DNA from: a virus
Lineage: Duplodnaviria > Heunggongvirae > Uroviricota > Caudoviricetes
IMG/VR virus record: IMGVR_UViG_2565956614_000006
DNA: 10,156 bases
Direction: 5' to 3' (one strand)
The notes beneath the pieces are model-generated. The model was not told where the DNA came from. It worked only from the letters and a program-made list of their open reading frames with translations, and made no database searches. The position numbers and the translations under genes are program-made. Shown here piece after piece: positions 673 through 9,803 of the stretch; position 1 is the stretch's first letter, and the number at the start of each line of letters is the position of its first letter.

Positions 673-923
673 GGTAATATTAAATCGGAACATTTACATC
701 GCGGAATGTAAAATTTAAATAAAAAGGACTCTTCCATGAGCCAAAATTCCTGAAATCTTAAGGGTAAGATAAAAGGTCTTAATCAGAATGACACGTTATT
801 ATTAATAAATAAAGCTATTCTTTCATTGCTGTGTTTTTCTTTACAAAAGTAATCCTTGCTATGGGTGGTTAATCATGCGTTAATGGTGTTCTGGTTTGTT
901 ACAAATTTATCTGAAGCAGTCAT

Positions 924-932
924 TGTTATAAT
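924..932 (+). promoter_or_regulatory. Candidate extended -10 promoter element (TGtTATAAT) for the cold-shock gene
   Basis: Sequence tgttataat at 924-932 matches TGnTATAAT; lies about 100 nt upstream of the csp start inside a long AT-rich leader, as expected for cspA-family genes. No convincing -35 found. Confidence 0.25.
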
Positions 933-1035
933 TTTATTATTTGTACCTCTTGAGATTTCCTTGTTGGTTTTTCTCTCTGATATTTTTTTTCGGACCATTC
1001 TGCCCAAGGGCTAATTTCTTCAAAAGGTAATAATT

Positions 1036-1248
1036 ATGTCTAACAAAATGACTGGTTTAGTGAAATGGTTTAACCCTGAAAAAGGTTTTGGTTTCATCAC
1101 GCCGAAAGATGGCAGCAAAGATGTGTTTGTCCATTTCTCAGCAATTCAGAGCAACGATTTCAAAACATTAACTGAGAATCAGGAAGTTGAATTTGGTATT
1201 GAGAACGGACCTAAAGGTCCTGCCGCTGTTCATGTAGTGGCGCTTTGA
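1036..1248 (+). CDS. cspI: Cold-shock protein, CspA family (CspI-like)
   Basis: 70-aa [45 protein letters not shown]... with RNP1-like KGFGFI and RNP2-like VFVHF motifs of the cold-shock domain; matches my recollection of E. coli CspI; AGG-containing RBS 8 nt upstream; long AT-rich 5' leader. Confidence 0.88.
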
Positions 1249-1447
1249 GGTAGACAATATTACAAACCATATTCACTTTAGATGCCCGTGTTGTCATGGT
1301 TCCCAGTATAGAACATCATCTTTTGATGTTTCTGACATGAATCCTTTCGGGGCAAAATGTATCTTTTGTAAATCAATGATGATTACATTTGATAATATTT
1401 CACAATACTTAAATGCCAGCCGTCTGTCGTTGGATTTAAAAAAGTGA
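1238..1447 (+). CDS. Small zinc-ribbon-like ORF (CPCC...CIFC) with no canonical start codon; possible non-ATG start or recently decayed gene
   Basis: Frame open from 1238 to TGA 1445-1447; translation ...[57 protein letters not shown] has two Cys pairs spaced as in a zinc ribbon. Only in-frame ATG is at 1337, which would split the motif. A strong intrinsic terminator follows 6 nt after the stop. Confidence 0.35.
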
Positions 1448-1452
1448 AAATG

Positions 1453-1476
1453 AAGGCTCCTTCGGGAGCTTTTTTG
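1453..1476 (+). terminator. Rho-independent terminator (GC stem, UUCG tetraloop, T-run)
   Basis: aaggctcc-ttcg-ggagcttt then a run of T's: stem of up to 8 bp, TTCG loop, six T's. Sits just downstream of the csp gene and the zinc-ribbon ORF. Confidence 0.65.
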
Positions 1477-1519
1477 CTTGGTATCTATTCGATGGATACT
1501 CACATACTACGGTAACATC

Positions 1520-1750
1520 ATGAAAAAAATCATAGTTTTTTTTAACTCTGAACCAGCAGTGGTAGTGCCAGCGATGACTGGAGTTAACACCATCATGCGT
1601 GAATATCCAAATGGCGAAAAAACACACCTTACTGTAATGGCCGCAGGGTTTCCATCTCTGACCGGAGATCATAAAGTCATTTATGTAGCCGCGGATCGAC
1701 ATGTTACTTCAGAAGAAATTCTGGAAGCAGCAATAAGGCTCTGGAGTTGA
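1520..1750 (+). CDS. Hypothetical small protein (76 aa from ATG 1520; possible YnfN-like prophage protein)
   Basis: Open frame 1478-1750; plausible starts at 1520 (MKKIIVFF...), 1574 or 1595 (MREYPNGEKTHL..., 51 aa). No strong RBS at any of them. Position between the csp gene and the gns gene parallels the Qin prophage cspI-ynfN-gnsB arrangement (recalled). Confidence 0.45.
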   Translation: MKKIIVFFNSEPAVVVPAMTGVNTIMREYPNGEKTHLTVMAAGFPSLTGDHKVIYVAADRHVTSEEILEAAIRLWS

Positions 1751-1921: not shown

Positions 1922-2095
1922 ATGAATATTGAAAACTTAAAAACAAAAGCAGAAGCAGATATTTCTGAATATATAACAAAAAAAATTATTGAACTTAAGA
2001 AAAAGACCGGGAAAGAAGTTACCAGTATTCAGTTTACCGCACGGGAAAAAATGACGGGTCTTGAAAGCTATGATGTCAAGATTAATTTAATCTGA
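1922..2095 (+). CDS. gnsB: GnsA/GnsB-family small protein
   Basis: 57-aa ORF MNIENLKTKAEADISEYITKKIIELKKKTGKEVTSIQFTAREKMTGLESYDVKINLI; the FTAREKMTGLESYDVKI block matches my recollection of E. coli GnsA/GnsB; RBS AAGAGGA at 1911-1917. Shorter than the supplied ORF-track cutoff. gnsB rather than gnsA is chosen from synteny only. Confidence 0.8.
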   Translation: MNIENLKTKAEADISEYITKKIIELKKKTGKEVTSIQFTAREKMTGLESYDVKINLI

Positions 2096-4272: not shown

Positions 4273-6372
4273 ATGGGTTTTTCATCAGCCCGAAATTTGG
4301 GAAGGGACATATCGGCAGGATTTTCCCCACCACGTCGCATGCCGATTTCGGAGGCTGTTAAAAAATTCATGCGTGTTCCCAAGGGGGCTGGTAACTCGGT
4401 GCCATGGGATCCTGAACTGACACCCTACATCATTGAGCCCATGAACTGCCTGGCATCGCGTGAATACGATGCGGTGATTTTTGTTGGTCCTGCGCGAACA
4501 GGGAAGACCATTGGTCTGATCGATGGATGGATTGTCTATACCATCGTTTGCGATCCTTCGGACATGCTCGTTGTGCAGATGACCGAAGATAAGGCCCGCG
4601 AGCATTCTAAAAAGCGCCTCGACAGAACGTTCAGAAGCAGTGCGGCGGTAAAGAAAAGAATGAGTCCACGTCGTAACGACAATAATGTCCATGATAAGAC
4701 GTTCAGGGATGGCTCGTTCCTTAAAATTGGTTGGCCCTCGGTCAACATTATGTCGTCGTCGGATTACCGGTTTGTCGCCTTAACCGATTACGACCGTTTT
4801 CCGGAGAATATCGACAGCGAGGGTGATGGTTTCTCCCTGGCCTCAAAACGTACCACCACATTTATGTCCGCCGGGATGACTCTGGTGGAGAGCTCGCCGG
4901 GACGTGACATCTGCGACAGCAAATGGCGACGTAAGTCGCCTCATGAAGCGCCACCGACGACTGGTATTCTTTCCCTTTACAATCGTGGTGACCGCCGCCG
5001 CTGGTACTGGTCATGTCCGCACTGCGGTGAATATTTTCAGCCAGCCATGGATGCCATGACCGGCTACCGTAATGAACCGGATCCCTTTAAAGCCAGTGAG
5101 GCGGCGTATCTACTTTGCCCGCACTGCAGCGGCATTATCACTGCGGAGAAAAAGCGTGAGCTCAATAGTGCAGGAGTCTGGTTGCGTGAAGGTCAGGTCA
5201 TTGATCGTAACGGCAACGTTTCCGGTGAACCGCGCCGCTCCCGTATCGCCAGTTTCTGGATGGAAGGGCCAGCTGCTGCGTATCAGACCTGGGCGCAACT
5301 GGTTTACAAATTACTGACTGCAGAACAGGAGTATGAAGCGACAGGAAGCGAAGAAACACTCAGGGCGGTTATCAACACCGACTGGGGATTGCCTTATCTT
5401 CCTCGTGCCAGCATGGAGCAACGAAAAAGTGAACTGCTTGAGCAGCGGGCAGAGCCAGTTCCTTCCCGCAGTGTGCCGGATGGCGTTAATTTCCTTGTGG
5501 CGACAGTGGATGTGCAGGCGGGACGTCATCGCCGTTTTGTGGTTCAGGTAACGGGCTATGGCAGTCGTGGCGAACGCTGGATTATTGATCGTTACAACAT
5601 CACGCAGTCATTGCGCAGTGACTGCGACGGGGAGAGCCAGCGAATTGATCCGGCCAGCTATCCGGAAGACTGGGATGTCCTGCTGACGGATGTTTTTCAT
5701 AAAAGCTGGCCGCTGGCCTCCGATCCTTCTCAACAAATGCGACTGATGGCAATGGCGGTGGACTCCGGCGGTGAAGACGGGGTCACTGATAATGCCTATA
5801 AATTCTGGCGTCGTTGCCGTCGTGATGGCCTTGGTAAACGTATTTACCTGTTTAAGGGTGACAGCATCCGGCGCGCAAAACTGATCAGCCGTACATTCCC
5901 TGATAACACCGGACGAACGGGCCGCCGGGCGCAGGCCGCAGGTGATGTGCCGCTCTGGCTTCTTCAGACGGATGCCCTGAAAGACCGGGTGAATAACGCG
6001 TTATGGCGTGACTCGCCAGGTCCAGGCTATGTGCATTTCCCTGACTGGCTGGGGAGCTGGTTTTACGACGAACTGACGTATGAAGAGCGGAGCAGTGACG
6101 GGAAATGGAGTAAGCCGGGTCGCGGTGCCAACGAAGCTTTTGACCTGATGGTGTATGCCGAGGCTCTGGTCATTCTGCATGGATACGAAAAGATCCGCTG
6201 GCCGGATGCACCGGAGTGGGCGAGCCGGGAAACCTGGCTGGAGTGTGTCCAGGACAGTACCGAACCGTCATCCTCACCGGAACCGGTATCCACGCCTGTT
6301 AAAAAACAAAAACGGAAGAAAACAGTAACTGACGATGTTAACCCCTGGCTGACTTCCGGAGGATGGTTATGA
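4273..6372 (+). CDS. Terminase large subunit, lambda GpA family
   Basis: 699-aa ORF with AGGAGG RBS; Walker A-like VGPARTGKT; CPHCGE and CPHC motifs like those I recall in lambda gpA; size and position match the GpA family. Confidence 0.88.
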   Translation: MGFSSARNLGRDISAGFSPPRRMPISEAVKKFMRVPKGAGNSVPWDPELTPYIIEPMNCLASREYDAVIFVGPARTGKTIGLIDGWIVYTIVCDPSDMLVVQMTEDKAREHSKKRLDRTFRSSAAVKKRMSPRRNDNNVHDKTFRDGSFLKIGWPSVNIMSSSDYRFVALTDYDRFPENIDSEGDGFSLASKRTTTFMSAGMTLVESSPGRDICDSKWRRKSPHEAPPTTGILSLYNRGDRRRWYWSCPHCGEYFQPAMDAMTGYRNEPDPFKASEAAYLLCPHCSGIITAEKKRELNSAGVWLREGQVIDRNGNVSGEPRRSRIASFWMEGPAAAYQTWAQLVYKLLTAEQEYEATGSEETLRAVINTDWGLPYLPRASMEQRKSELLEQRAEPVPSRSVPDGVNFLVATVDVQAGRHRRFVVQVTGYGSRGERWIIDRYNITQSLRSDCDGESQRIDPASYPEDWDVLLTDVFHKSWPLASDPSQQMRLMAMAVDSGGEDGVTDNAYKFWRRCRRDGLGKRIYLFKGDSIRRAKLISRTFPDNTGRTGRRAQAAGDVPLWLLQTDALKDRVNNALWRDSPGPGYVHFPDWLGSWFYDELTYEERSSDGKWSKPGRGANEAFDLMVYAEALVILHGYEKIRWPDAPEWASRETWLECVQDSTEPSSSPEPVSTPVKKQKRKKTVTDDVNPWLTSGGWL

Positions 6373-6581: not shown

Positions 6582-8089
6582 TGGCAATTCTTGATGATGT
6601 GATTGGCGTTTTTTCACCAGGATGGAAAGCGGCAAGGCTGCGTTCCCGTGCGGTGATCCAGGCTTATGAGGCCGTAAAAACGACGCGGACACACAAAGCC
6701 CGACGGGAGAACCGAACTGCCGACCAGTTAAGCCAGTACGGGGCCGTGTCGTTACGTGAGCAGGCCCGTTACCTTGATAACAACCACGATCTGGTTATTG
6801 GTGTATTTGACAAGCTGGAAGAACGGGTGGTGGGGAAAAACGGGATTATTGTCGAGCCACATCCGGTATTACGCAATGGGGCCATTGCCCGTGACCTGGC
6901 TGCGGAGATTCGCACCCGATGGAGTGAATGGTCTGTCAGCCCGGAAGTCACCGGGCAGTTTACCCGTCCGATGCTGGAACGTCTGATGCTTCGTACCTGG
7001 CTGCGCGATGGTGAGGTGTTTGCCCAGATGGTTTCCGGGCGCATAAACAGCCTGGCACCTTCTGCCGGTGTTCATTTCTGGCTGGAGGCGCTCGAGCCAG
7101 ACTTTATTCCCATGACCAGTGATGAGAGCAACAGGCTGAATCAGGGCGTGTTTGTTGATGACTGGGGGCGTCCCGAAAAATATCTGGTGTATAAAAGCCG
7201 TCCCGTATCCAGACGGCAGATGGAAACCAAAGAAGTTGATGCAGAGCGAATGCTGCATCTTAAATTTGTTCGCCGTCTGCACCAGATGCGCGGGACGTCT
7301 TTATTGTCCGGTGTGCTGATCCGCCTCAGTGCCCTGAAAGAATATGAAGATTCTGAGCTGACTGCAGCAAGGATCGCCGCTGCTCTGGGGATGTACATCC
7401 GGAAAGGCGACGGGCAGAGCTATGAACCGGATGGTAATGGCAGAAAGGAGAATGAACGTGAGCTTACCATTCAGCCGGGCATTATTTACGACGATCTGAA
7501 ACCCGGCGAAGAAATCGGAATGGTGAAGTCGGATCGCCCCAATCCTAACCTTGAAACTTTTCGTAATGGTCAGTTGCGTGCCGTGGCGGCGGGCAGTCGT
7601 CTGAGTTTTTCCAGTACAGCGCGCAACTATAACGGCACTTACAGCGCCCAGCGTCAGGAGCTGGTTGAATCTACTGATGGCTACCTGATCCTGCAGGACT
7701 GGTTTATTGGTGCCGTCACCCGCCCGATGTACCGTGCATGGCTGAAACAGGCTGTGGCATCCGGTGTTATCAGGCTACCCCGCGATCTTGACCGTTCTTC
7801 ACTGTATACCGCGGTGTATTCCGGACCAGTGATGCCGTGGATTGACCCTGTTAAGGAGGCTGAGGCCTGGAAAATCCAGATTCGTGGTGGAGCGGCGACA
7901 GAATCAGACTGGGTACGTGCTGGTGGTCGTAATCCGGATGATGTCAAACGTCGGCGCAAGGCCGAAATTGATGAAAACCGCAAGCTGGATCTGGTATTTG
8001 ATACCGATCCGGCCAGTGATAAAGGAGGCAGTAGTGCCGCAACGAAACGACAGGAGCCGCAGCACACCGACGACCAGTCCGAAGAATAA
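6581..8089 (+). CDS. Portal protein (lambda gpB-like family)
   Basis: 502-aa ORF from the ATG overlapping the gpW stop (TGATG); the track ORF extends 24 codons upstream to 6509 but this start is coupled. Size and position between gpW and the head protease fit a portal. Confidence 0.8.
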   Translation: MAILDDVIGVFSPGWKAARLRSRAVIQAYEAVKTTRTHKARRENRTADQLSQYGAVSLREQARYLDNNHDLVIGVFDKLEERVVGKNGIIVEPHPVLRNGAIARDLAAEIRTRWSEWSVSPEVTGQFTRPMLERLMLRTWLRDGEVFAQMVSGRINSLAPSAGVHFWLEALEPDFIPMTSDESNRLNQGVFVDDWGRPEKYLVYKSRPVSRRQMETKEVDAERMLHLKFVRRLHQMRGTSLLSGVLIRLSALKEYEDSELTAARIAAALGMYIRKGDGQSYEPDGNGRKENERELTIQPGIIYDDLKPGEEIGMVKSDRPNPNLETFRNGQLRAVAAGSRLSFSSTARNYNGTYSAQRQELVESTDGYLILQDWFIGAVTRPMYRAWLKQAVASGVIRLPRDLDRSSLYTAVYSGPVMPWIDPVKEAEAWKIQIRGGAATESDWVRAGGRNPDDVKRRRKAEIDENRKLDLVFDTDPASDKGGSSAATKRQEPQHTDDQSEE

Positions 8090-9803
8090 TTCCTGGTTCA
8101 GGATGCAGGCTGGTCACCAGAGTGACGCGGATATTTATATTTATGACGAGATTGGTTTCTGGGGTGTTACAGCGAAGCAGTTTATCAGTGATCTGAATGC
8201 ACTGGGCGATATCACCCACATTAATCTCCATATTAATTCACCGGGTGGCGATGTCTTTGAAGGCATCGCCATTTTTAATGCGCTGAAAACACATGGTGCG
8301 TCCATTACCGTTTATGTCGACGGTGTGGCGGCGTCAATGGCGTCGGTCATTGCGATGGTAGGAAACCCGGTCATTATGCCGGAAAACACCTTCATGATGA
8401 TTCATAAACCATTTGGCTTTACGGGCGGTGATGCGGAGGACATGCGCACCTATGCCGACCTGCTCGATAAAGTTGAGGCGGTTCTGTTACCCGCTTATGC
8501 ACAGAAAACCGGGAAAACCACCGATGAAATTGCTGCCATGCTGGCGGATGAGACCTGGATGTCCGGTGCCGAATGTCTGGCACATGGATTTGCTGATCAG
8601 GTAACGCCAGCCGTTAAGGCAATGGCATGTATTCAGTCAAAACGTACAGAGGAATTTAAAAAGATGCCGGAATCCATTCGAAACATGATTACTCCGCCAC
8701 GCAACAGTGCTCCACGCGTACAGGATAATGAACCTGAAGCCTCCCGGACGCCAGTGCAGGCAGCAGCACCCGTGGTGGATGAAAACAGCATCCGTGCGCA
8801 GGTACTGGCAGAGCAAAAAGCGCGTGTAAACGGTATTAATGACCTGTTTGCCATGTTTGGCGGGCGTTATCAGACGCTGCAGGCTCAGTGTCTTGCCGAT
8901 CCTGAATGTTCGCTGGAGCAGGCCCGTGAAAAGCTGTTGAACGAGATGGGGCGCGAGTCCACGCCATCCAATAAAAATACCCCGGCTCATATTTATGCCG
9001 GTAACGGTAATTTTGTGGGGGACGGGATCCGCCAGGCGCTGATGGCGCGTGCCGGATTTGAAAAAACCGAACGTGATAATGTTTACAACGGGATGACCCT
9101 GCGTGAATATGCCCGTATGTCACTAACTGAACGGGGTATTGGGGTTTCCGGTTATAACCCGATGCAGATGGTCGGTGCGGCGTTCACACACAGTACGTCT
9201 GACTTCGGTAATATTCTGCTGGATGTTGCGAACAAAGCCATTCTGCAGGGCTGGGAAGATGCCCCTGAAACCTATGAACAGTGGACGCGGAAAGGTCAGT
9301 TGTCTGATTTTAAAATTGCCCATCGTGTGGGTATGGGTGGCTTCAGTGCTCTGCGTCAGGTGCGTGAAGGGGCGGAATATAAATACGTCACCACCGGAGA
9401 TAAACAGGCCACTATTGCACTGGCGACCTATGGCGAGCTGTTCAGTATCACCCGTCAGGCCATTATCAATGATGATCTGAATATGCTGACCGATGTCCCG
9501 ATGAAACTGGGCCGTGCGGCGAAATCCACTATTGCCGATCTGGTTTATGCCATTCTGACGTCTAACCCGAAAATCTCCACAGATAATGTAAGTCTGTTCG
9601 ATAAAGCGAAACATGCAAACGTACTGGAGAGCGCAGCAATGGACGTGGCATCGCTGGATAAAGCCCGCCAGTTGATGCGCGTTCAGAAGGCGCTGGATTT
9701 AACGTGGGGTCACCTCAACAGGCAGGTATATCTGAACTTGTTTTACGTGCAGGTAATGGTAATCCGAAGGGGATTACTGGTGCTTTATGGCAGCGCACAT
9801 TGA
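8034..9803 (+). CDS. ClpP-like prohead protease fused to scaffold/major capsid protein; 3' end disrupted by a deletion junction
   Basis: ClpP (S14) signature blocks [10 protein letters not shown]...[31 protein letters not shown]; C-terminal two-thirds resembles an HK97-fold capsid domain. Preferred start GTG 8034 with AAGGAGG RBS 5 nt upstream (inside portal 3' end); alternative ATG 8103. The frame ends in an implausible tail (...[28 protein letters not shown]) while another frame continues as tail-fibre sequence. Confidence 0.8.

Follow-up and report, generated by a model that had tools for sequence, protein, structure and literature searches.

The stretch of DNA analyzed here, 10,156 nucleotides in length and referred to as the window, carries a block of cold-shock genes, the features of which are listed in Table 1. 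Window positions 1036 to 1447, from the cspI start to the ynfQ stop, are 100% identical to E. coli K-12. In the RefSeq annotation of K-12 MG1655, the stretch equal to window positions 1259-1447 is ynfQ (b4724, YP_009518790.1), which belongs to the cryptic prophage Qin and has an ATT start. A CDS of strain E2865, WP_071524604.1 ("cold shock small protein YmcF"), maps to the same positions with ATT first. We read the first codon off both the K-12 and the window DNA at the annotated ynfQ start, and it is ATT in both.

Table 1. Features of the cspI-ynfQ region of the window
Feature	Position	Strand	Remarks
cspI 5' leader	890-1035	+	covers the 5' portion of the RF01766 hit (Rfam cspA thermoregulator), which extends over 890-1275
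cspI coding sequence, 70 aa	1036-1248	+	stop TGA 1246-1248; identical to K-12 b1552
Shine-Dalgarno (SD) sequence GAGGT for ynfQ	1247-1251	+	overlaps the cspI stop (T-GAGGT); AGG core ends 8 nt before ATT
ynfQ coding sequence, 62 codons and stop	1259-1447	+	ATT start 1259-1261, TGA stop 1445-1447; placed by RefSeq CDS mapping, PF23641, ATG in relatives, dN/dS
first cysteine knuckle, C9-P10-C11-C12, then H13-G14-S15-Q16	1283-1294	+	conservation in 40 sequences
second cysteine knuckle, C34-I35-F36-C37, then K38	1358-1369	+	conservation in 40 sequences
ynfR, 21-codon ORF (MKAPSGAFLLGIYSMDTHILR)	1450-1515	+	RefSeq; coding sequence crosses the terminator hairpin
intrinsic-terminator-like hairpin and T6	1452-1475	+	GC core 1456-1469 (GCUCC-UUCG-GGAGC), extendable to 1452-1473; T6 1470-1475
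ynfN, 76 codons in the window	1520-1750	+	next gene of the cold-shock cargo block
gnsB	1922-2095		continues the cold-shock cargo block after ynfN

The gene shows no differences between K-12 and the window, and both have the annotated ATT and the neighbors rzpQ/rzoQ, cspI, ynfQ, ynfR, ynfN, and gnsB in common. The prophage in the window is more complete than K-12 Qin, with terminase, portal, and capsid ORFs downstream, and its ynfN is longer. A run of T residues at 1536-1543 in ynfN counts eight in the window and seven in K-12, the annotation of which gives only 51 aa for this gene. When complete E. coli genomes were searched with a 561-nt query around the ORF, 2145 of 5426 gave a match, and the identity reached at least 99% in 1574. 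The RefSeq genes beneath the match are cspI, "ynfQ/ymcF: cold shock small protein YmcF", ynfR, and ynfN. The same ynfQ ORF is also present in many other genera of Enterobacterales, a distribution well beyond what chance would produce. The cspI-ynfQ-ynfR-ynfN block occurs in the sequenced lambdoid phages Tritos, 2H10, mEp460, and HannyBb, and in the window it is placed between the lysis genes Rz/Rz1 (175-672) and the terminase/portal/capsid module. Therefore, we regard the block as phage cargo.

The feature is already known. It is listed in RefSeq and EcoCyc (b4724; paralogue ymcF, b4723), and its family is Pfam PF23641. Zhang and colleagues are believed to have introduced ymcF and ynfQ in 2018 (Mol Cell). 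Neither the study by Weaver et al. (bioRxiv 511675) nor that by Nakahigashi et al. (PMC4909307), both checked for the first report of ymcF/ynfQ, mentions the cspI or cspG loci. The name also requires care: "ynfQ" in VanOrsdel et al. (PMC6001520) is another ORF of 37 aa located between ydfJ and ydfK, and Table 1 of that study, which also covers ynfR, gives ynaM the same 37-aa sequence.

The leader of cspI belongs to a match with RF01766, an Rfam model that spans the cspA leader, coding sequence, and terminator. The match scored 112.8 bits (E = 7e-29; gathering score, 78) and covered model positions 1-397; the model's own 3' terminator hairpin (model positions 398-425) was unmatched in the window. 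The part of the match that extends beyond 1248 is low-probability padding. The first terminator-like structure after cspI is the hairpin downstream of ynfQ, with a minimum free energy of -14.9 kcal/mol (z = -2.6 versus shuffles), and a simple scan gave the same stem. As the sequence-only reading had pointed out, the ynfQ stop lies close before it, the hairpin and T-run following TGA 1445-1447 by approximately 6-8 nt. A comparable GC hairpin with a T-run is present within approximately 5-25 nt of the stop in most homologous loci.

Placed after the cspI stop and ahead of the first terminator, ynfQ therefore belongs to the cspI transcript, the leader of which matches the cspA cold thermosensor. 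This arrangement supports the co-transcription of ynfQ with cspI from a cold-responsive leader, and, together with the conserved frame described below, it bears out the earlier suggestion of a real gene co-transcribed with the csp gene. Published expression data are indirect evidence for the cold induction of YnfQ. ynfQ has been listed as "Qin prophage, cold shock induced" and as co-induced with cspI and ynfN (PMC11228462), ymcF and ynfQ change jointly with cspG and cspI (PMC11728337), and the neighboring YnfR, tagged as YnfR-SPA, could be detected and rose strongly upon cold shock (PMC6001520).

A protein search with the translated frame identified 132 homologues, nearly all 62 aa long and all with PF23641, in Escherichia, Citrobacter, Salmonella, Klebsiella, Raoultella, Kosakonia, Yokenella, Leclercia, Kluyvera, Dickeya, and other genera. 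The window protein aligned over residues 1-62 with profile positions 1-62 of the 62 positions in PF23641 (YmcF-like), with a score of 111.8 bits (E = 1.7e-32; gathering score, 27), and it has every conserved motif residue found among 40 members of the family. Fifteen positions are invariant in the 40-sequence alignment (F7, P10, C12, G14, S15, Q16, R18, S20, D23, P29, G31, F36, C37, K38, and M41), and C9, C11, H13, C34, I35, and others are conserved in at least 90% of the sequences. Members of PF23641 are typically, not universally, found directly after a CspA-family gene; the cspI stop lies 10 nt before the ynfQ start, and this layout recurs in 46 of the 77 loci compared below.

For the DNA comparison, 80 loci were fetched from species-representative genomes, 77 loci including the window were analyzed, and 8 more divergent loci were added later. 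The median pairwise dN/dS in the ynfQ frame was 0.058, with a 90th percentile of 0.107 (codons 2-46, 708 pairs), whereas the two shifted frames over the same columns gave medians of 2.0 and 2.5. Variability at codon positions 1, 2, and 3 was 0.104, 0.050, and 0.376, respectively. Synonymous sites were saturated in the 77 loci, with pN of approximately 0.1. Judged from these substitution patterns, the ynfQ frame is under strong purifying selection. The earlier reading would have been abandoned if relatives did not conserve the frame; at a dN/dS of approximately 0.06, they clearly do.

The frame is open from 1238 to 1447, immediately after TAG 1235-1237. Its translation contains the CxxC-(21 aa)-CxxC motif reported by the sequence-only reading (C9/C12 and C34/C37). 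The reading was also correct in that there is no upstream ATG, GTG, or TTG, none being present in the 7 in-frame codons between TAG 1235-1237 and 1259, and in that the only in-frame ATG (1337, Met27) splits the motif, leaving a 36-aa ORF that lacks the first CxxC. It had proposed a rare start as one explanation and a comparison of orthologous regions downstream of cspI as one check. The codon homologous to 1259-1261 is ATT in 52, ATC in 4, and ATG in 21 of the 77 loci, window included; relatives thus carry ATG at exactly the codon at which RefSeq places the ATT start. Of the 85 loci, 72 have the AGG core of the SD at a distance of 8 nt upstream of the start position, and 6 have it at 7 nt. The sequence T[AG]AGG is invariant across 25 csp-coupled junctions. 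The 10-nt spacer upstream of the start codon is variable, and conservation begins at the ATT codon. Gene calls restricted to canonical starts give N-terminally extended proteins with Ile at the ynfQ start position. The window has the sequence features of the AUU-initiated class represented by infC and pcnB, namely, ATT at 1259, GAGG at 1247-1250, and no usable canonical start back to TAG 1235. The ATG in relatives, the SD spacing, the onset of conservation, and the conservation of the frame together fix the start at 1259, and, on these alignments, ynfQ starts at the ATT there.

We consider it highly probable (approximately 0.9) that window 1259-1447 corresponds to ynfQ and that ynfQ is a genuine coding gene of the YmcF-like family, which encodes 62 residues with two conserved CxxC knuckles, starts at AUU, and is carried as cargo by a Qin-type lambdoid prophage. 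The sequence-only reading, which was correct in everything it stated as fact, picked out a real gene that standard ORF finders miss because of its ATT start. For a genome scan, the ynfQ locus is a good negative result.

The choice of start codon followed the upstream gene. An intact csp ends 9-10 nt upstream in 46 loci, and these have 42 ATT, 4 ATC, and no ATG starts. In contrast, the 31 loci with no adjacent intact csp have 21 ATG and 10 ATT starts. The raw Fisher p value for this association in the 77 loci is 1e-11, a statistic that ignores shared ancestry. Upstream csp genes were scored by ORF because tblastn alignments are trimmed at the C terminus and undercount csp. All 10 csp-less ATT loci have a canonical ATG close by. 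The start in three of them, from Atlantibacter, reads ATT ATG. In the other seven, from Pseudescherichia, an 8-codon uORF (ATGAAAAAAGGATACTATTATTACTAA) overlaps the ATT and ends 4 nt past it.

The more divergent loci added later agree with this pattern, apart from one. Dickeya (gap of 11 nt) and Pluralibacter (gap of 10 nt) have csp and ATT, while Kluyvera and a second C. braakii copy have ATG and no adjacent csp. Shimwellia blattae and E. ludwigii also lack an adjacent csp and have an in-frame ATG 6-7 codons upstream; in an E. asburiae-type locus, an ATG is located 3 codons upstream. Tenebrionibacter was the one poor fit: csp is adjacent, there is no SD, TCC occupies the start position, and GTG is found one codon upstream. 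Within Citrobacter, C. sedlakii, in which 19 nt are deleted from the 3' end of csp, has an ATG start, whereas the other species have an intact csp and ATT. The Klebsiella-type ATG loci keep a csp C-terminal remnant (...PAVVNVVAKRG*). The link between csp and the start codon rests on few independent evolutionary events; the Klebsiella/Raoultella type and the Leclercia/Silvania/Enterobacter type may each represent one. The pattern across these junctions suggests a weak start that relies on csp translation or is tuned to it. The association is a modest, possibly unpublished addition to what is recorded for this family. Our literature search found no paper describing a near-cognate start coupled to csp in the ymcF/ynfQ family. 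The association of a weak start with immediate csp adjacency offers a simple, testable model of codon use and retention.

AUU and AUC initiate translation at 1-2% of the level of AUG, and, in 2016, infC and pcnB were the only non-canonical (AUU) starts regarded as confirmed in E. coli (10.1101/063800). mRNAs with AUU compete poorly against AUG mRNAs in vitro, especially at low temperature (PMC5499595). Therefore, an AUU on a cold-shock transcript looks odd, except in the case of coupled initiation or of an mRNA present in very large amounts. In our reading, ribosomes ending cspI at UGA 1246-1248 may be retained by the overlapping SD and reinitiate at the AUU 10 nt further on. Alternatively, a very abundant cold-shock mRNA may make a start at 1-2% of AUG sufficient. 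By either route, YnfQ would be produced during cold shock in a small, constant proportion to CspI, and a canonical start would be selected where csp is lost. On the sequence data, we give roughly equal weight to termination-reinitiation and to mere tolerance through the abundance of csp mRNA.

The stricter form of this proposal is that AUU/AUC works only through tight coupling to a heavily translated csp, the stop of which lies inside the SD 9-11 nt before the start, and that the loss or disruption of csp is accompanied by an ATG start or an adjacent ATG-initiated ORF. We advance it tentatively, as a possibility that falls somewhat short of even odds. Two observations run against csp coupling: the seven Pseudescherichia loci keep ATT without csp, and Tenebrionibacter, with csp, has neither ATT nor SD. 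If the proposal is true, ymcF/ynfQ represents a natural, phylogenetically replicated case of termination-reinitiation at a non-canonical codon, and coupling fixes the ratio of a small zinc protein to the cold-shock RNA chaperone.

The strongest alternative is that 30S subunits initiate independently at AUU 1259 through the well-placed SD, the weak codon setting a low output or a sensitivity to IF3 as in infC, and that lineages without csp compensated with ATG. A GAGG/AAGG SD with the same 8-nt spacing is present in the ATT as well as the ATG lineages, the start is not occluded by a conserved structure, and uncoupled AUU supports 1-2% of AUG initiation (10.1101/063800). Independent initiation also explains the association of csp with ATT; the lineages that lost csp perhaps also lost its strong cold-shock promoter and leader. 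However, AUU mRNAs compete poorly in the cold in vitro (PMC5499595). Moreover, in all csp-adjacent loci but one, the csp stop overlaps the SD and is found 9-11 nt from the start, which is the typical layout of coupled genes, and the csp-less ATT/ATC lineages always have another translated ATG nearby (the uORF in Pseudescherichia and the upstream ATG in Shimwellia blattae and E. ludwigii). We regard independent initiation as quite possible, although not probable. Regarding RNA structure that may occlude the SD or start, none was conserved in the 25 csp-coupled junctions. A hairpin hiding them was predicted in the window alone with a non-significant z of -1.35, and we rejected it as a candidate.

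Another route that we considered is recoding, by which YnfQ would be a C-terminal extension of CspI produced by a +1 frameshift at the end of cspI, CUU UGA G (1243-1249), which has the same slippery pair as the prfB frameshift site. The sequence GCG CUU UGA GGU is present at 1240-1251, and the ynfQ frame is +1 relative to cspI and open across the junction from 1238. However, the motif is not conserved and is missing from most relatives, with CTC TAA, GTA TAA, CGC TAA, or CGT TGA in its place. The gap from the csp stop to the start is 9, 10, or 11 nt depending on the genus, and, thus, the frame relation is not kept. The CUU lacks a stimulatory SD 3 nt before it, the codons of the spacer show no conservation, and the ATG lineages have no csp. 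Recoding is very unlikely. A CspI-YnfQ fusion by a +1 frameshift or by readthrough, assessed by prfB-type criteria, was rejected because neither the motif nor the frame relation is conserved.

The real product may also be sought in the 36-aa peptide from ATG 1337-1447, which is the sole ORF with a canonical start in the ynfQ frame; the upstream part would then be untranslated cspI 3' UTR. The most conserved residues of the family precede Met27 (H6, F7, R8, C9, P10, C11, C12, H13, G14, S15, Q16, Y17, and R18), the Pfam model spans residues 1-62, and the dN/dS of 0.058 was obtained over codons 2-46. Met27 itself is not conserved, with K, R, S, G, Q, or N in other members, and 1337 is not preceded by an SD. 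We give this shorter product almost no credence.

The absence of a canonical start codon in the window and the presence of ATG at the start position in some genera may also be read as the signs of a pseudogene that was once initiated by ATG, lost its start or had its frame broken by an indel, and is now decaying. The sequence-only reading had raised both possibilities. A start-codon mutation in a decaying gene does not agree with the retention of ATT or ATC in approximately a dozen genera and in both E. coli paralogues. A single-base indel that shifted the frame is contradicted by the identity of the window to K-12 and by an intact frame in 77 of 77 loci, with synonymous sites saturated and pN of approximately 0.1. 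The SD is also preserved, and 1574 E. coli records are at least 99% identical. Decay is barely credible. Lastly, conservation due to an RNA element for stability or regulation in the cspI 3' UTR, rather than to a protein, may be virtually dismissed: the stretch does lie between a stop codon and a terminator, and the Rfam cspA match does reach 1275, but that match is low-probability padding past 1248, the three-base periodicity is clear (0.104/0.050/0.376), dN/dS is low in the ynfQ frame only, and the alignment fold has no conserved helix.

The two CxxC knuckles of YnfQ are 21 residues apart and provide four conserved putative metal ligands, as in zinc ribbons. C11 and H13 are extra near-invariant residues beyond the Cys4 set. 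AlphaFold2, run with the 40-sequence alignment, gave a mean pLDDT of 74, with values of 88-91 over residues 11-40; in the model, the knuckles carry short strands, and residues 44-58 form a C-terminal helix of lower confidence. A Foldseek search against the PDB returned nothing significant. Its best matches, all weak (E 0.5-5), were the zinc ribbons of TFIIE-alpha, TFIIB, RPB12, eL43-type ribosomal proteins, and NrdR. In the modeling presented in a 2026 review, YnfQ has a rubredoxin topology and a metal site (PMC13348028). YnfQ most likely has a Cys4 metal site in a zinc-ribbon-like fold, and "zinc-ribbon-like Cys4 mini-protein" is plausibly its best description. The zinc-ribbon-like character claimed by the sequence-only reading is, thus, plausible with respect to the two conserved knuckles, whereas the fold comparison lends it weak support.

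The HMM search that this reading had recommended gave a full-length match to PF23641 YmcF-like and a CxxC-family match in NCBIfam that did not reach the cut-off (NF047912, ECs_2282 family putative zinc-binding protein; 17.8 bits against 37). A relationship to Rieske [2Fe-2S] or other iron-sulfur proteins through the CPCHGSQY motif was also considered and rejected as not significant. When PDB sequences were searched with a profile, the resemblance was restricted to 13 residues, FxCP-CHGSQY, similar to Rieske box II (C-P-C-H-G-S; E = 0.066); box I (C-x-H) is absent, and YnfQ is far too short for the fold. We take the resemblance to be a coincidence. Our best guess, held with low confidence, is that YnfQ may be a small metal-stabilized ribbon that binds nucleic acid or a component of transcription or translation in the cold.

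Among the closest known systems, besides K-12 ynfQ itself, is ymcF (b4723), which is located behind cspG in K-12. YmcF has 62 aa, is approximately 65% identical to YnfQ, has the same cysteine pattern, and belongs to PF23641. The junction of ymcF (TAAGGttgccattATT) resembles that of ynfQ in the window (TGAGGtagacaatATT): the csp stop overlaps the SD (TAAGG), the AGG core is followed by an 8-nt spacer, the annotated start is ATT, and a terminator comes right after the stop. Both genes have a gns gene downstream. In contrast to ynfQ, ymcF is chromosomal and not prophage-borne, the stop of its csp is TAA, and its C-terminal 17 residues diverge. Regarding the fold, the zinc ribbons of TFIIE-alpha, the TFIIB N terminus, RPB12, eL43, and NrdR have two CxxC knuckles approximately 20 residues apart and short beta strands, as does the predicted model of YnfQ.

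In translationally coupled restart pairs, the stop of the first gene lies in or near the SD or start of the second. Nearly all csp-adjacent loci show a similar arrangement, with a csp stop that overlaps the SD and is placed 9-11 nt ahead of the start. A near-cognate AUU/AUC is an unusual restart codon, and the coupling here is putative, being known from the sequence layout. The classic AUU-initiated genes of E. coli, infC and pcnB, have an AUU start after an SD, as does ynfQ. The AUU of infC serves the autoregulation of IF3, whereas nothing of that kind is known for ynfQ. Unlike infC and pcnB, ynfQ has its AUU 10 nt after the stop of a very highly translated upstream gene. ymcF and ynfQ are among the very few E. 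coli genes for which an AUU start is annotated.

The identity of the ynfQ/ymcF start codon tracks gene context throughout the family. In the window (1246-1261) and homologous loci L004-L091, the start codon was ATT or ATC wherever an intact csp gene ended 9-10 nt upstream (46/46 loci), and an adjacent csp was absent from all of the loci with ATG at the start position (21/21). Where ATT or ATC was kept at loci lacking csp, a second, ATG-initiated ORF adjoined the start.

In Citrobacter sedlakii NBRC 105722 (L010, ~1440-1503), the last codons and stop of csp were lost through a 19-nt deletion, and the remainder of csp is now in frame with the ymcF homologue, with 81 open codons upstream. The ymcF homologue of this strain starts with ATG, whereas every other Citrobacter locus differs from ATG at this position. 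The upstream csp is absent from seven Pseudescherichia loci (L019, L021, L022, L025, L027, L029, and L053; ~1480-1510), in which its place is taken by an 8-codon uORF, ATG AAA AAA GGA TAC TAT TAT TAC TAA (MKKGYYYY). This uORF is out of frame with the ymcF homologue and overlaps its ATT, and the uORF stop lies 4 nt past the ATT.

A YnfU-family (PF23499) gene was located just upstream of the ynfQ/ymcF homologue in Shimwellia blattae, Enterobacter ludwigii, and Tenebrionibacter, where it adjoins csp genes. PF23499 is another family that takes its name from a small protein of the Qin prophage. Thus, two small-protein families are clustered around csp genes.

Small genes near ynfQ/ymcF and csp genes, with their coordinates.
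Feature	Locus	Coordinates	Length	Remark
YnfU-family gene	L085	404-571		strand opposite to ynfQ/ymcF homologue
YnfU-family gene	L087	405-575		strand opposite to ynfQ/ymcF homologue
YnfU-family gene	L088	1-174		strand opposite to ynfQ/ymcF homologue
ynfR	window	1450-1515	21 codons	start 2 nt past ynfQ stop
ynfN	window	1520-1750	76 codons	ORF

The terminator hairpin and its T-run (1452-1475) sit inside the ynfR coding sequence, and a strong increase in YnfR-SPA following cold shock has been reported (PMC6001520). Therefore, the terminator must be read through. In the cold, readthrough of 1452-1475 perhaps occurs by Csp-type antitermination. Further downstream, ynfN contains a run of eight T residues (window 1536-1543), which is T7 in K-12. 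The 76-codon ORF is common to the window and E. coli strain E2865, and K-12 ynfN is annotated as 51 aa only, from an internal ATG. Judging from the sequences, K-12 ynfN looks to have been truncated at its 5' end by a 1-nt homopolymer deletion.

E2865 (L092) is identical to the window around ynfQ. The terminase and capsid regions of the window (4273-6372 and 7842-9803) were compared with this locus. The large terminase ORF of the window (4273-6372, 699 aa) is intact, and the terminase large subunit and protease/capsid fusion genes of E2865 are both annotated as frameshifted pseudogenes. The prophage in the window may be less decayed than that of E2865. E. coli-type cspI-ynfQ and cspG-ymcF were also present on contigs labelled 'MAG: Veillonella parvula' and 'MAG: Mucilaginibacter sp.' (L005 and L059); L005 has the same junction as the window and encodes an identical protein. 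Both loci probably represent binning contamination of these metagenome-assembled genomes.

YnfQ residues 7-17 (window 1277-1309) resemble the Rieske iron-sulfur box II (C-P-C-H-G-S), with E = 0.066 over 13 residues. C11 and H13, which are not among the four CxxC cysteines, also show conservation of at least 90%. These residues could be alternative ligands or a sign of a different cofactor.

The end of cspI reads CUU UGA G (window 1243-1249), with ynfQ in the +1 frame, and CUU UGA is the slippery codon/stop pair of the prfB programmed +1 frameshift site. We rejected a prfB-like frameshift because the motif was not conserved in relatives and no stimulatory Shine-Dalgarno sequence was present upstream of it; the likeness is probably a coincidence. 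The cspI leader and coding region (window 890-1275) matched the Rfam cspA thermoregulator model, and a counterpart of the 3' terminator hairpin of the model (positions 398-425) was not found in this match. In comparison with cspA, the cspI transcription unit is longer, with ynfQ inserted ahead of the first terminator.
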